5,381 bases of DNA, taken from Candidatus Micrarchaeota archaeon (GTDB lineage Archaea; Micrarchaeota; Micrarchaeia; Norongarragalinales; UBA8480). Positions 1 to 5,381 of the stretch are shown here, piece by piece. Position 1 is the stretch's first letter. Every line of letters begins with the position of its first letter. The stretch is from assembly GCA_043805855.1 (NCBI GenBank), contig JAZDHP010000023.1, forward strand, positions 1 to 5,381, in the 5' to 3' direction. The position numbers were made by a program.

Positions 1-3000
1 AACTTAAATTTATTCGGCGAGCGAGGTAAATTATACGTTGCGAGATGTGCCTCTTTTTTTGGCAACGAGGCAGAGCAGTACCGCAAAGCGTTCATGCAAA
101 AAGACAAGCGCGTTGTTGTAATTGGTTCAGATGCTAACCAAGTGTTTTACTACCACGAGGCAGACGAAGCGTTTCACACGCTATTATTTGACAAGAGTTT
201 ATTTTTCGTCGGCGGAAATGTCACACGCGGCGGTTTCCAGTACTGGACCGTTGCTTCCCTGCACAAAGAACCACTTCTGGAATTGTTCAAACGAGTGGAA
301 AAACTCGGCAGTAAAAGAGCAACAATTGAACTACTTTCACTTCACGAAGGTAATGTCAACGTTTTTTCCCACGCGGTGCTTTCCGAGTTAACTCCCTTGC
401 AATTACAAGCACTGCAGTTAGCGCATAAACACGGCTACTTTGAATACCCGCGTAAAATTAGTTTAGAACAATTGGCTAAACTCGCGCACATCCCGCGCAC
501 AACGCTACAAAGTCACTTACGCCGTGCAGAAAGAACATTAATTCCCGCGCTTTTAGGTCAAATCAAGAAATAGGCACTTGCCTACTATAGCTGTAAGTAG
601 TTGTTTTGCTCTGTTTTTGTTATGTTTGGCTCCGACTTAGTTGACGCTGGGGTTTTTGTTTTTGTACTGCTTTTATTATTATGGATAATGAAAAAACCTA
701 TTAGCGAGGTAAACGAAGAAATAAGTGAGAAAAATGGAACCAAACTTGAATCGCCTGTCTAAACTCAACTTTGAAGTTGTAAACGAAGAAGGCAAATTAC
801 ATAATTTATTCTACGTCTCTATTTTTCTCGATGTTTTTTGTAATGGACTGAAAGAAGCTTATGGTCGTGGTTTGCAAAATATATTTGTAGATTTCAAAGG
901 CCAATTTTTGAGATTAGTTGTCGATGTGGATTACTATGAAAAAACTGCATCGCATTTGTTTAACTTAGTACAAAAAGACCCTGCTTTTGCTGACAATATA
1001 AATACGCAACTATTTGAACAATTCACGGTTGTAAATGCTTTTTCAAAACAGCTATTGTCAACTGACTTTTCTAAAAAAACCAACGCTGAACTAATTTCAA
1101 TTTGTGACAAATATTGCTTGTTATCGCATCGTATGATTACGCTTGGAATGTTTCCGACAATAATGGAAATGCGCCAGCCACTTTACACTGACTTTTTAAC
1201 TCAAATAGTTGACCGTAAAAACAAAGAGACAAATGCAAGTATTGCAATTTCAGAGGCAGTTGCAATTTTATCTTCCTTTGATGGAGATACGATTACAAAA
1301 AGCGAACAAAATGAATTGATAAAAATAGCTTTGCAAATGCAACAAAAGTGTAGGAATAATGAACAAGTTCTTGCCGCTGTTTTGAAATCCCACGTTGAAA
1401 AATACGGCTGGTTAGTTTATGGCTATGGCGGGCCAGCTTGGACTGAAAAGGAATATCTAAATTCTCTCAATTCGTTTGAATCGCTAAGCGAAGAACATTT
1501 ACAAGAGAAATTGCACCAATTGCAAAATCCTGAAGTGCAAAAACAACAAGCGTATTTTGAACAAAAACTGCAACTTAGCTCCGTGGAAAAGAGGTACTTT
1601 GCAATTGCGCGGGATTTCATGAAAGGCAAAGCACTGCGCCGCGAAGCAATGGCACTAGCGTGTTATGCTTCTGAACCGCTTCATAGGGAAATAGCCAAGC
1701 GGCTGAATCTATCCTTTCTACAAGTGCGGTTCATGCTTCCAAGCGAAATAAAAATTGCACTTGGTGAAAATAACGTAAATAGCGTAGTTAGCGAAACTGA
1801 ACTTTCCAAGAGAACTCAAAGCATGGTTTACGGGCTGTTTGAAAACAGCGAAAAAGAATTCATTGCAACTGGCAAGGAAATTGAAACATACACTGCGCTT
1901 ATCAAGACAATTGCAGTTTCTGAAAAAATCCATGAGTTAAAGGGAACGTGCGCTTGTCCGGGAAAAGCCCGCGGTGCAGTGAAAATAATTGACAAGCCAG
2001 AGCAGATGTCCAAAATGCAAAAAGGTGACGTTTTAGTTTCCTACGCTACTACCCCTGAAATTGTAGCGGCCATGCGCATCGCGTCTGCAATTGTAACTGA
2101 CTTCGGCGGCTTAACAAGCCACGCAGCAATTGTTTCACGAGAATTAGGCGTACCTTGCGTTATTGGCACAAAAATAGGCACTAAAGTATTTCAAGATGGT
2201 GACTTTGTTGACGTTGACGCTACAAACGGCACAATAACCCGCGTTCCGCCATAGTTCCACTAATTTTTGCAAAATTGTTTTTTTGTCCTTAAGAGAATTT
2301 AACCTGTACTTTTTGTCTTTTCGTATGGTTTGTTCTAGGTAACGCGTATATACTTTCAAATTGAAGGTTACTTTGCTGAAAAGCATAGGGGTGGAGTATA
2401 AAGGTAAAGTTTCAAAGGAAGGTAAGTAAAATGGCTGAAGAGACTTTTTTGTTCGCTGTGCTTGTAATTCTGTTCCTTTATGTTTTTAACGTGGTTTTGC
2501 CACAAAAGAAACCAGAATTTACAAGTGAAGAAATTCCTCACAAGAGAGAGGTAAACACGGTTTGAACAATTGTTCAGCGCTGATTTTGAACAGCGGGTTT
2601 TAGAGAATTCTCCTTGACTTTTTCTAAATAACATAAAATTAAAGAACTACTTCTGCGCTTATGTTGATAGTGGATTTTTTAGCGTTTGTTTAACTGTTTT
2701 GAGAGGTAAATCAAGCTTCCTAAATGAAAATAAACGGTTTTAGAACAAAAAGCAATTAATTTGTTCGTAATTAGGCAAAAAGTCTTTTAATGGTTAATTG
2801 AGGTGTTTTTAGCATGGGTCACAGTCACAATTACATTCGTCACTTTTCTAAGCTAGGCCGGGGAGATGTAGCTATTGCTGGCGGTAAAGGGGCTTCGCTT
2901 GGTGAAATGTTTTCTCACGGTATAGCTGTGCCGCATGGTTTTACAGTTATTACTCCTGCTTTCGACGCTTTTATTGAATTGAACCAACTTGACGAGCGGA

Positions 3001-5381
3001 TTAAAGCTGCGTTGTTTGAAGTTAACCAAAAGGAATCAGCAAGCGTGGAAAAAGCCTCTGAAACTATACGTAAACTAATTGAAGAGGGTGACATGCCGAA
3101 AGATGTTGAAGATGCAATTGTGACTGAGTTCAACGCAATGGCGTCGCAATTCGTTGCCGTACGCTCTAGTGCAACTGCTGAAGATGGCTCTACGGCTTCT
3201 TGGGCTGGTGAACTGGAAAGTTACACTAATGTCACTGAAGAAGATTTAGTTGAAAAAGTGCAAACGTGCTGGGCTTCGCTGTTCACGCCGCGTGCTATTT
3301 TTTACCGTTTTGAAAAAAACATGCAACACAAGCTAGTTAGCGTCGGGGTTGTAGTACAGAAAATGGTCGACTCGGCTGTAAGTGGAGTTGCGTTTAGCGT
3401 TAACCCAGTTACAAAAAATTACGATCAAATTATAATCGAAGCTGGCCTCGGTTTAGGGGAAAGCGTAGTTGCTGGAATAATTACGCCGGATAATTACCTA
3501 GTTAACAAAAAAGAAGAGTACATTGAAGACATTACTGTTAATTCTCAAGAGACGATGATTGACAAAGTCGACGGGGTTTCGACAACTATTGACGTTCCGC
3601 TTGAGTTGAGGGAATCGCAGAAACTCACCGGCCAGCAGATTATTGAACTAGCAAAGATGGTAAAGCACATTGAAAAGCACTACGGCTTTCCCGTAGATAT
3701 TGAGTGGGCGTACGACAAAAACGACAAGAAGCTCTACATCGTTCAATCAAGGCCAATAACAACACTTTAAAATTAAACAAGGGATATATTTTTGTAATGT
3801 TACCTTTTTGGCTTTCTCCATATCTCGGCCGCGTGGTAAGTGCGTTGGTGTTAATTGTTGGAGTTTACCTTTTAGTTCCAGAATTAATTACTGGTGAAAT
3901 TCTTTTACTGTTAATTGTCGTCGCTTATCTTGCTGGCCATTGGGTTTGGTTCCTGTGGCGTAAATACATTGTGCGTAAGGTAATTGCGTTTGACGTGGGC
4001 GGCGTAATTGCACAAGGAGATTATTTCACTGAGCACATTCGACCAATGCCTGGAATGTACGAAATGATTACCGAAACTAGAAAAAGTTACATAACTGTAG
4101 TGCTTTCCAATAACAATCGCTTAGTTGACCCTGGCTTTAGAAAACTATTCAAGTCGGATGATATGTTTGACATGGTTTTCTACTCTAGCGATTTAGGTGC
4201 GAAGAAACCAGATGTCGGTATTTACAAACGGTTCATACAACAAACTGGCGTATCGCCGCACCAAATTATCTTTTTCGACGACGACGCGAAAAACGTAGAA
4301 GCTGCCAAAAGCGTCGGCATAAACGCACACGTGTTCAAAAGCGCATCACAAGCAATGGAAGCAATACGTAGACATTGAACGATGGGGAATTACGGCCAGT
4401 AAACTCATTAGAAAATAAGAAAAGAAAAAAATGAAATTAAAATAAGTCTACTCGTGTAAGTAAACTATGCCGTGCTTGCGTAAAAGAAAGTGTTTCACGC
4501 TGCCATTTTGGTAGCCTAGAGTTACTATCCCTTCGCCTGGTTTAAAGTTTCCGCCAATTTCTTCTGTTTTCTTGCCTAAAATCTCTTCAGTCATCCAGTC
4601 AATTGGTCCAGGAATGTCGCCAATTCCGCCGTGCGTTACACTAAGAATAACTGCGGGTCTAGCTGGACCGCTCCAGTTCTCTTCTTTCAAAGCATGTTCC
4701 ATTAAATGCTGAGCTACATTGGCGCCTTGTTTTTCTGCAAGTGCTTTGCCTTCGGGGAGTAGTTCATCTCCTTTATTTTGGCCGTGCCTCATGAAAATAG
4801 AAACAATGACTGGCATTCGGTCACTTAGTTGTGCTCCGCCTTTTTTCATTTGAGCGCCTAAACTTTTCGCAGCGTTTCCAATTGCTTTATTTCTGCTAAC
4901 TAAACTGCCAAAATGTTGCCGTTGGCTTAACTCTGCCCGTGAGGGAAAAATTGGAGACGCGTCTCCACGATTAATGACTTGCAGTGCAGCAGTCATCTCT
5001 TCAAGAGAAGCTTTTGGAAAACCGCGTTGTAACGCAACCTCTGAAAAAGCCTCTAGTTCTCGCTTTACCGTACTTGGCCTAGCAACTACTGAAATGTTAG
5101 CTGCTTTTGCGGCGTTTGTAAATCCTTTGATGAACAATTCACTCGTATTAGCTGCGCGTTTACGCGGGCTATTTGGAGACACTAATAAAATTTCACGGCG
5201 CATTTCAGGCATAAGTTTCACCTTTTCTTAAAGAACTAGAAAAACCAACTTTAAAAGCTTTGAGCCGGCACTTGGCGGATTTGTTTGTAGCCTATTTTTA
5301 AAAGTTAGAATGTAATTGTATATTACAATGAGAGCTAAAGTAAATTTTGATGTTTTGGTATGCTTTGTAAAGTCGTTGTCT

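Follow-up and report, generated by a model that had tools for sequence, protein, structure and literature searches.

The window, i.e., the whole stretch of DNA analysed here, comprises 5,381 nt and corresponds to the entire contig C23 of an archaeal genome with a size of 1.03 Mb (G000). In the following, H denotes a protein composed of a substrate domain and a swivel domain, and I denotes a stand-alone ATP-grasp protein. The features of the window are:

1..573, plus strand: transcription regulator of the HTH_10 family (PF04967, E 6.5e-18), 5' end cut by the contig start
734..2254 (ORF start 725/734), plus strand: g00477, family member H without ATP-grasp domain (only PF00391, aa 432-502, E 7.1e-23)
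2431..2565, plus strand: small ORF of 44 aa, predicted single-helix membrane peptide, conserved in the same-genus genome G014
2814..3770, plus strand: g00479, stand-alone ATP-grasp I, 318 aa (PF01326 alone, aa 21-317, E 3.5e-98)
3797..4378, plus strand: HAD-superfamily hydrolase with two N-terminal membrane helices (HAD_2, E 2.2e-14)
4448..5221, minus strand: 257-aa protein, possibly of the histidine-phosphatase superfamily (ESM Atlas features, lead only)

The regulator consists of an N-terminal alpha/beta domain of approximately 150 aa followed by the HTH domain. Its family has four proteins in this genome, three of them encoded directly upstream of an H gene on the same strand with gaps of 59-152 nt and the fourth 1.8 kb from an H gene. 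Homologues of the regulator occur in 11 of the order's 18 loci with a stand-alone ATP-grasp, and three same-genus genomes show the same regulator-H-I order. The position of regulators before some H genes suggests that each H might be switched on by its own ligand. For the HAD protein, the start at 3797 was inferred from the lengths of its relatives (197-208 aa); its nucleophile Asp is retained, and Gly or Val stands in for the second Asp two residues on (alignment A3). A homologue lies directly 3' of the ATP-grasp gene in 6 of the 18 loci (window, L095, L097, L099, L103 and L108), and this membrane HAD behind I suggests that a later step may take the phosphate off again. Neither the regulator nor the membrane HAD was found in 80 genome_contigs loci, ten of which carry CPR or archaeal members of the clade of I described below.

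The 44-aa ORF has a counterpart of 46 aa in G014 at the same place and in the same orientation, in which the changes across a conserved YVFN.VLP stretch fall on third codon positions; for an 88-aa ORF on the minus strand (2368..2634) no match was found in the relatives. The 257-aa protein has no Pfam or NCBIfam match, and its ESM Atlas assignment (His_Phos_1 score 0.92, 128 shared features) is a lead only. It has eight relatives in 1.84 billion representatives and was not found in any relatives' locus examined, and it is doubtful that it forms part of the system.

The survey's finding had claimed 17 family members and one free ATP-grasp, and both numbers were borne out. A phmmer search with g00477 returned 17 family ORFs and the PEP synthase, in line with the 18 matches to PF00391 (PEP-utilizers, swivel), and the two matches to PF01326 (PPDK_N) are I and the three-domain PEP synthase. 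The latter (C9:7826-10321, 831 aa) is separate from the family and is, among the three kinds of proteins compared, the sole carrier of PF02896, the PEP/pyruvate-binding TIM-barrel that Pfam detects in neither H nor I. All 136 pairs of the 17 paralogues gave a blastp match, and the 50 pairs whose alignment spans 0.7 or more of the shorter protein are 24.0-37.8% identical, which agrees with the 25-37% given earlier. All 17 paralogues have the catalytic His in the motif GG..xHAA, but only 15 have the Thr two residues earlier, so that the T-x-H motif, previously called invariant, is not so in this genome. The swivel domains have a mean identity of 50.7%, the helical domains of 16.3%, and no helical-domain residue was found to be conserved in at least 14 of the 17 paralogues. 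At 351 and 352 aa, two members are short, one of them being cut by a contig end (C39). The H genes are scattered over at least 12 contigs, and 16 of the 17 do not adjoin I. Order-wide, the earlier range of 0-29 PF00391 matches per genome was confirmed in 61 scored genomes.

Relation of H and I to rifampin phosphotransferase

In g00477 a helical substrate-binding domain of the rifampin phosphotransferase (RPH) type (aa 1 to approximately 395) is followed by the C-terminal phosphohistidine swivel domain with the catalytic His463 in the motif GGLTSHAA. The AF2 model (pLDDT 93.1, pTM 0.90) has 5fbu as best Foldseek match (E 2e-14). In VIA, its residues 2-505 align with residues 321-867 of the 5fbt chain (Z 20.2, rmsd 4.5, 436 aligned), and the helical domain alone aligns with RPH-Lm at Z 15.1. 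Hence, the RPH-like substrate domain plus swivel claimed for the family is found in this member, and the substrate-domain and swivel fold is that of RPH-Lm (5fbs, 5fbt, 5hv1; PMC4844700). The family profile A1 aligns with residues 609-865 of RPH-Lm (E 3.4e-27), showing that sequence homology extends past the swivel. In this alignment, basic residues of the family, K299 and R303, fall at the places of RPH R666 and K670, whereas an equivalent of RPH Glu667 is not kept and the near-invariant R302 falls at P669; of the 15 paralogues having the region, 11 show the motif [KR]-x-x-R. The RPH family models nevertheless score H far under their cut-offs (NF041857: 48.3 bits, cut-off 999, swivel only), and the best PRK08296 model, representing the HpeH/CreH/PpsA subfamily, reaches 93.8 bits (cut-off 578) over aa 394-506 only. 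RPH moreover unites three domains in a single chain, whereas here the ATP-grasp is encoded by its own gene and H is devoid of it.

I has the ATP-grasp fold and no further domain, and K25, R117, S136 and E297 of g00479 align with K22, R117, T136 and E297 of RPH-Lm, i.e., the ATP-site residues are kept, which counts as support for a two-component dikinase. I falls into a clade of 26 (SH-aLRT 100) with stand-alone and fused forms from CPR and archaea. This clade is separate from the ATP-grasp domains of the order's PEP synthases and likewise excludes the stand-alone subunits of bacteria (L075, L078 and L088), candidate counterparts of HpeI/PpsB. I is 51-55% identical to the CPR/DPANN members of its clade and 41% to the ATP-grasp of the genome's own PEP synthase. 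Compared to the same-genus genome G050, identity is 86% for I, 63% for the regulator and 56% for H; judged from these values, I evolves slower than the neighbouring genes. The sequence-closest relative of both ATP-grasp and swivel is PEP synthase (PpsA): I scores 249.3 bits against an archaeal PEP synthase and 172.8 bits against PDB 9goj, a 387-aa chain that we take from its length to be HpeI, and the H swivel scores 93 bits against the PEP synthase 8a8e.

H and I are furthermore linked at the level of genes. In the window, g00477 and g00479 are on the same strand 560 nt apart, and 13 of 17 relatives' loci likewise have an H gene in the vicinity of I. Of the ten best relatives of I in genome_contigs, six form a single ORF of 810-1311 aa together with a complete H module, three are stand-alone with an adjacent H and one (667 aa) carries the swivel only. 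L018 (1233 aa) and L020 (1311 aa) each combine one PPDK_N domain with two swivels, and L013, L097 and L100 contain arrays of three to five H genes beside one I. The predicted complex of I, H and ATP scored 0.71 (0.70-0.72 in three runs; best of three controls 0.00); this mark was attained by 116 of the 157 solved complexes and by 2 of the 215 mismatched pairs. The pass may, however, reflect the likeness to RPH, which keeps the same contact within one chain. The runs agreed in at least 95% of contacts, with a partner pLDDT of at least 85. Conservation of the I-touching H residues of the model among the 17 paralogues (0.208 vs. 0.162 at other helical positions) was matched by 921 of 10,000 random sets and is thus not clearly above that of other helical positions; the segment 316-362, which holds these residues, is among the best-conserved helical windows (rank 3 of 337). 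Taken together, fold, ATP-site residues, gene linkage, fused forms and the predicted complex support the proposed reading of H and I as a two-component dikinase.

Two-component small-molecule dikinases have been published, namely HpeHI (Rhodococcus), CreHI (Corynebacterium) and the phenylphosphate synthase PpsAB (Thauera, Aromatoleum) (PMC12167813). In these systems, one protein is an ATP-grasp only, the partner is composed of an RPH-like substrate domain with a C-terminal swivel His, and both genes are adjacent; the predicted I-H docking resembles the HpeH:HpeI:ATP model given there. By analogy with RPH and HpeHI, H and I would follow a swivelling-histidine dikinase mechanism: the 318-aa I would bind ATP, the swivel of a partner H would dock on I and its His (His463 in g00477) would accept the beta-phosphate of ATP under release of AMP and phosphate, and the swivel would then return to the helical domain of H and transfer its phosphate to a hydroxyl group of a small molecule held there.

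Possible range of partners of the ATP-grasp protein

Stand-alone I is encoded by 18 of the sampled genomes, in each as exactly one copy at 3-29 PF00391 matches. It is present in 17 of the 31 genomes with at least five PF00391 matches and in 1 of the 30 with at most four. In the remaining 14 of the 31 member-rich genomes no stand-alone I was found, as had been noted before for several of them, and a recheck of four I-less genomes with the I profile returned the PEP synthase ATP-grasp only. In G020, assembled into 8 contigs and 90% complete, seven H genes cluster with a HAD-like gene and a regulator, and no I was found. The earlier caveat that PEP synthase or another donor may serve therefore holds. 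In G000 the paralogue swivels share 38-53% identity with the PEP synthase swivel of this genome, which is also the range found between the paralogues, and the PEP synthase gene on C9 is one gene away from the member C9_5556, so that PEP synthase, on this sequence likeness and proximity, may act as phosphate donor. The survey's proposal that one ATP-grasp charges many carriers is plausible: it is favoured by the single-copy I of 18 genomes and by the fusions of one grasp with two modules, while the 14 genomes without I speak against it, leaving the earlier interpretation as a whole partly supported.

With one I and 17 H proteins of alike swivels and divergent substrate domains, a single I loading most or all H is the most likely reading. 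The window thus probably encodes a split RPH-type dikinase whose I would charge the neighbouring H together with most or all of the dispersed paralogues, each acting on a different small-molecule substrate. That I instead serves its neighbour H only, in a 1:1 pair like HpeHI, is rather unlikely but deserves serious weight given the I-less member-rich genomes, the G020 cluster, the 41% identity of I to the PEP synthase ATP-grasp, and the swivel likeness and gene proximity of PEP synthase just described. However, such pairing is at odds with the presence of I tracking H family size (17/31 vs. 1/30 genomes), with its single copy regardless of the number of H, with one grasp fused to two H modules and with arrays of several H adjoining one I. 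In addition, the ATP-grasp of PEP synthase is bound to its own swivel inside a multimeric enzyme and is not known to have trans activity. A further possibility bears on the substrates rather than on the mechanism and agrees with the split dikinase: the H battery might inactivate antibiotics or toxic compounds as RPH does rifampin, one compound class per H. RPH is the only solved structure matching the whole H protein, the neighbouring genes encode a nitroreductase, alpha/beta hydrolases, a NUDIX protein and phosphatases, and rph-like genes are listed for CPR genomes in a resistome survey (PMC8651080). The swivel-only match of the RPH models and the lack of widely conserved helical-domain residues argue against this role, and as relatives serve catabolism (HpeHI, PpsAB) and biosynthesis (PigC), the fold does not indicate resistance; we regard it as improbable.

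Even less probable is a transfer of the phosphate to proteins instead of small molecules, in a PTS-like or signalling relay acting, e.g., on the HTH_10 regulators. Three of the four regulators of the family being encoded directly upstream of H genes would fit such a relay, as would the swivel domain, which is also common to PTS enzyme I; but a regulator lies directly upstream of just 3 of the 17 H genes, a regulator gene before an enzyme gene is the usual ligand-induced arrangement, CPR relatives possess H and I without an HTH_10 regulator, and the counterpart of the helical domain is the RPH domain with the small-molecule pocket and not the HPr-binding domain of enzyme I. Finally, the high copy number could be a binning or strain-mixture artefact of a metagenome-assembled genome, since seven members are located on short contigs or contig ends and the window itself is a 5.4-kb contig. 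This we consider the most improbable explanation of all: at 24-38% identity, whole-length pairs are far more divergent than strain variants would be, the genome's contamination amounts to 1.23%, and three same-genus genomes have 15-16 PF00391 matches and the same regulator-H-I order.

Comparison with known systems and implications

The split two-component design as such is already known, in contrast to the one-to-many layout and the targets of the latter. HpeHI, CreHI and PpsAB are bacterial 1:1 pairs with phenolic compounds as substrates (PMC12167813), whereas here the ratio is 1:17 in an archaeon, and no aromatic-catabolism genes were found among the neighbouring genes. H also remains under the PRK08296 cut-off of that subfamily. 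Closer are the one-grasp arrays and multi-module fusions of CPR/DPANN organisms, which share the I clade, the H family and the one-to-many layout, but in which the H genes form one tandem array, whereas here 17 H over at least 12 contigs stand against one I. No publication on such one-grasp, many-module arrays or fused multi-module proteins of CPR/DPANN was found. Relative to them, HTH_10 regulator and membrane HAD are additions of the archaeal order, and the conserved archaeal module of regulator, family member, ATP-grasp and membrane HAD is new. Tentatively, one may picture a hub-and-spoke system of CPR/DPANN organisms, in which one conserved ATP-grasp charger serves many interchangeable carrier-kinases (17 here, up to 28 in the order) with their own ligand-sensing regulators, different scavenged or host compounds are trapped or activated, and a membrane HAD closes the cycle. 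Such a system, if true, would amount to a soluble, ATP-driven counterpart of the logic of the PTS, with one energy-coupling protein and many specificity modules.

An organism of approximately 1,200 genes spends 17 of them (1.4%) on one enzyme family, and relatives up to 28, although organisms with such gene numbers generally retain almost nothing dispensable. Dikinases use two phosphoanhydride bonds per reaction and are thereby able to phosphorylate poor nucleophiles. The homologues scored (at least 3,199 of H and at least 7,408 of I) carry database labels such as "PEP-utilizing enzyme" and "pyruvate, water dikinase", which are misleading when the metabolism of CPR and DPANN organisms is reconstructed. 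As a concrete hypothesis of modular enzyme design, the one-to-many layout is testable with few recombinant proteins, and the substrates of the H proteins would reveal which compounds these symbionts obtain from their hosts or their environment.

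Gene organization of the window and the two components

The genome (G000) comprises 1,031,631 bases in 67 contigs with a completeness of 92.14% and a contamination of 1.23%. The window corresponds to contig C23 in its full length and carries the following features:

1-573, + strand: HTH_10 regulator (Pfam), cut at its 5' end
734-2254, + strand: g00477, an H protein, starting at ATG 734 (or GTG 725); Pfam detects the PEP-utilizers swivel alone (amino acids 432-502)
2431-2565, + strand: 44-aa open reading frame with one hydrophobic helix, in the 560-nt spacer between g00477 and g00479
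2814-3770, + strand: g00479, an I protein of 318 aa; Pfam detects PPDK_N alone
3797-4378, + strand: HAD hydrolase with two N-terminal membrane helices; the frame opens at 3704 and 3797 is the likely start
4448-5221, - strand: 257-aa protein without known family

Here, H denotes proteins with a helical substrate domain like that of rifampin phosphotransferase (RPH) and a C-terminal swivel domain (PF00391) bearing the catalytic histidine (His463 in g00477), and I denotes a stand-alone ATP-grasp domain (PF01326). In other families of the order the gap between H and I is only ~100 nt. The spacer frame has a 46-aa counterpart in G014, a genome of the same genus (locus L093, 886-1026, - strand), and the two show third-position differences across a conserved stretch, a pattern expected of a real coding sequence. 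Rfam gave no match in the window, and a promoter and terminator scan performed no better than on shuffled sequence, its models being bacterial and not applicable to archaea.

The AlphaFold2 model of g00477 (45-row alignment) reached a pLDDT of 93.1 and a pTM of 0.90. The top six Foldseek matches were the RPH-Lm entries (best 5fbu, E 2e-14), all others covering the swivel only. VIA-align superposed 436 residues of the model (2-505) on RPH (chain 321-867) with a Z of 20.2 and an rmsd of 4.5 Å, and the helical domain alone (model 2-393) yielded a Z of 15.1. The NCBIfam models PRK08296, RPH, PigC and RedH matched only amino acids 381-507 of g00477, far under their cut-offs. The H family profile aligns with RPH-Lm 609-865 (E 3.4e-27), showing that sequence homology to RPH extends past the swivel. 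In this alignment K299 and R303 of the family correspond to RPH R666 and K670, both described as required for the second phosphotransfer (Stogios et al., PMC4844700), and the equivalent of Glu667 is not kept. Among the 15 paralogues having that region, 11 show a [KR]-x-x-R motif. As for g00479, its residues K25, R117, S136 and E297 align with K22, R117, T136 and E297 of RPH.

The survey's reading of a two-component dikinase is sound, as the architecture matches that of HpeHI, in which HpeI is an ATP-grasp alone, HpeH joins a swivel to an RPH-like substrate domain and the histidine is essential (J Biol Chem 2025, PMC12167813). H and I of the window are divided by the same split, and a two-component dikinase is very likely on the evidence as a whole. 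The architecture itself is therefore not new, since it has been published for HpeHI, and CreHI and PpsAB (phenylphosphate synthase) are named as further two-component members (PMC12167813). Our literature search returned no publication on the H family in CPR or DPANN organisms; rph-like genes of CPR genomes are listed in one resistome survey (PMC8651080).

Probable joint action with H and lineage of the ATP-grasp subunit

Gene fusions link the two components. With the I profile, ten relatives of I in genome_contigs reached 450 bits or more, compared to at most 384 for PEP synthase domains. Three of these stand alone with adjoining H (at locus L013 with five H genes), six are single frames of 810-1311 aa in which I is fused to a complete H module, and L021 (667 aa) joins I to a swivel only. 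Two proteins, the archaeal L018 (1233 aa) and L020 (1311 aa), each contain one PPDK_N and two swivels. Apparent Epimerase_2 fusions (P0037, L018) were spurious, resting on sub-threshold matches that overlap the swivel domain.

Within the order, all PPDK_N matches lying in open frames of up to ~450 aa were fetched with their loci, and 17 loci carry a true stand-alone I at least 50% identical to that of the window. H lies within the fetched stretch at 13 of the 17; the other four are L108, L110 and two further loci on contigs shorter than 4 kb. The apparent stand-alone grasps of G002, G027:C18, G060:C6 and G044 were rejected, being PEP synthase genes truncated where the contig stops (42-46% identity).

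Structure prediction of I together with H and ATP gave a complex with a score of 0.71 (0.70-0.72 over the runs), and the best of three controls scored 0.00; of 157 solved complexes 116 attain that mark, as do 2 of 215 mismatched pairs. Between runs at least 95% of contacts agreed, with a partner pLDDT of at least 85. The interface pairs I 234-242 and 267-277 with H 318-362 and 380 and lies at the base of the swivel. The pass is to be read as likeness to known enzymes and not as independent proof, because RPH has the same contact within one chain and alignments built in this analysis were supplied. Conservation of the H interface residues was not significantly higher than that of the rest of the helical domain (the value was reached by 921 of 10,000 random sets); the segment bearing them is among the best-conserved windows of that domain (rank 3 of 337).

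With the ATP-grasp of the PEP synthase in its own genome, I shares 41% identity, and with stand-alone proteins of 311-320 aa from CPR bacteria such as Parcubacteria, Komeilibacteria and Doudnabacteria 55-59%. At least 7,408 proteins passed E 1e-10 among 8,000 candidates scored. A quick IQ-TREE analysis of 97 ATP-grasp domains (support as SH-aLRT only), restricted to rows that cover at least 250 profile positions in one stretch, which excluded L017, L059 and L093 among others, recovered a clade of 26 (support 100) with 19 stand-alone I and seven fused forms from CPR bacteria and archaea. Within it the window's I joins 14 other stand-alone I of its order (support 96). Those of G011 (L100) and G032 (L110) group with CPR sequences, apart from the order's other 15, a possible sign of transfer between CPR bacteria and DPANN archaea. 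The PEP synthase domains of the order (support 95), three stand-alone subunits of bacteria encoded beside H-like genes of 618-793 aa (support 89) and the RPH-like proteins of Firmicutes (support 99) all fall outside the clade. Judged by these sequences, the window system is a separate lineage of the two-component kind.

The H paralogues and their possible charging

Pfam counts (18 PF00391 and two PF01326 matches in G000) and phmmer with g00477, which retrieved 17 frames and the three-domain PEP synthase (C9:7826-10321), agree with the survey on 17 family members, a separate PEP synthase and one stand-alone ATP-grasp. Seven members lie on short contigs or contig ends, so that 17 may be a lower bound; two are short (351 and 352 aa), and one is cut by a contig end. 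Blastp matched all 136 paralogue pairs, and the 50 pairs whose alignment spans 0.7 or more of the shorter protein are 24.0-37.8% identical, in line with the 25-37% given earlier. The range of 0-29 PEP-utilizers matches per genome also recurred across 61 genomes of the order. Mean identity is 50.7% in the swivel (35.8-66.7) and 16.3% in the helical domain (8.7-25.8). The claimed invariance of T-x-H held for the histidine, found in GG..xHAA in 17 of 17 members of G000, and not for the threonine two residues before it (15 of 17).

A free-standing 106-aa swivel was observed in G020 (L114, G020:C1, 6103-6423, + strand), followed by proteins of 367 and 255 aa without Pfam match, and frames of 111-158 aa surround swivel matches also in G040, G042, G045 and G055. 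These may represent a further split, in which swivel and substrate domain would each have a gene of their own.

The proposal that one ATP-grasp charges many carriers is plausible. I occurs as exactly one copy in each of the 18 sampled genomes having it, next to 3, 5, 6, 6, 9, 9, 11, 14, 14, 14, 15, 16, 16, 17, 18, 18, 19 and 29 PF00391 matches, and its presence tracks their number (17 of 31 genomes with at least five matches versus 1 of the 30 genomes below that number). The fused proteins in which one grasp is covalently tied to two modules point in the same direction. Moreover, identity to the same-genus genome G050 is 86% for I versus 56% for H and 63% for the regulator, the pattern expected of a shared hub. 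However, no stand-alone I was found in 14 of the 31 member-rich genomes (G002, G005, G020, G024, G029, G041, G043, G048, G051, G054-G057 and G060; 68-90% complete). When five of them were rechecked with the I profile, G005, G020, G048 and G055 yielded the PEP synthase domain alone, and G057 only a 133-aa contig-end fragment of either I or PEP synthase. The cleanest case of a battery without its supposed charger is G020, an assembly of eight contigs, where a run of six H genes at L115 (G020:C7:218000-236000) is succeeded by a HAD-like gene of 286 aa, an HTH_10 regulator and one more H, with no ATP-grasp gene. The 286-aa product was considered as a hidden ATP-grasp and discarded (hhalign probability 0.2; it resembles a HAD enzyme).

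These genomes favor the main alternative, in which PEP synthase would donate the phosphate to H. The H swivels are 38-53% identical to the PEP synthase swivel and thus as close to it as to each other. In G000 (L001, C9:179-10321) only one amino-acid-kinase-family gene separates PEP synthase from an H member (C9 5556-7109), and another H stands at the start of the same contig. Against PEP synthase as donor stand the single-copy state of I, its association with member-rich genomes and the two-module fusions, and shared charging of the H set by the single I is the best, though unproven, explanation. As a separate observation, the PEP synthase of G029:C6 lies in a 1305-aa frame with its PPDK_N match in two pieces ~1.5 kb apart, which may reflect an intein or other insertion.

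Regulators, hydrolases and further neighbors

The window's regulator family has only four proteins in G000, three of which lie directly upstream of an H on the same strand (C23, C67, C59; gaps 59-152 nt) and the fourth 1.8 kb from one. Regulator homologues occur in 11 of 18 stand-alone-I loci of the order (a weak one at L099), and a membrane HAD homologue directly downstream of I in six of 18, from three families. The genes typically follow one another as regulator-H-I-HAD (window, L099) or as I-HAD-regulator-H-H-H (L097); neither regulator nor HAD was found in the CPR loci examined. The regulator model (pLDDT 86.8) retrieved only Ta1207 (5m86, TMq 0.45) with Foldseek, from which a ligand is therefore not inferable. 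The HAD following I is membrane-anchored by two predicted helices and a subsequent run of basic residues. It keeps the nucleophile Asp and the Ser/Thr, Lys and Asp-Asp motifs, with Gly or Val in place of the second Asp of D-x-D, a residue missing in all four aligned HADs (window 3797-4378, L095, L097, L099). Other H members neighbor a low-molecular-weight phosphatase, NUDIX, nitroreductase, hydrolases and TrmB regulators. This pattern of regulators, HAD and neighbors suggests, by analogy to the Hpe pathway, ligand-induced kinases whose phosphate would later be removed. In the same genome, a 480-aa protein (L006, C59:10687-12129) has MtrA-like, thymidylate-synthase and PterinBD-DUF4346 matches, and the RtcB ligase gene beside it (C59:12803-15685) contains an intein.

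The 257-aa protein (4448-5221, - strand) was dropped as a system member, as none of the relatives examined shows it in synteny. A word-index search found no homologue and an exhaustive search eight; Pfam gave one weak His_Phos_1 match (16.2 bits, below cut-off), a PDB profile search nothing meaningful, and the ESM Atlas features a His_Phos_1 score of 0.92. The protein and its few relatives carry RH.xN, SP.xRA.xT and SHGG, hallmark motifs of histidine phosphatases, with the RH segment mid-protein in the window's subgroup and N-terminal in three relatives (P0245-P0247), as if moved.

As a summary, beyond the published architecture the analysis adds a tree setting I apart from PEP synthase and the bacterial two-component subunits, and documents genomes that retain an H battery without I. 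The window itself adds a regulator-H-I-HAD module conserved in an archaeal order and the largest dispersed set seen here, 17 H to one I, in an archaeon.
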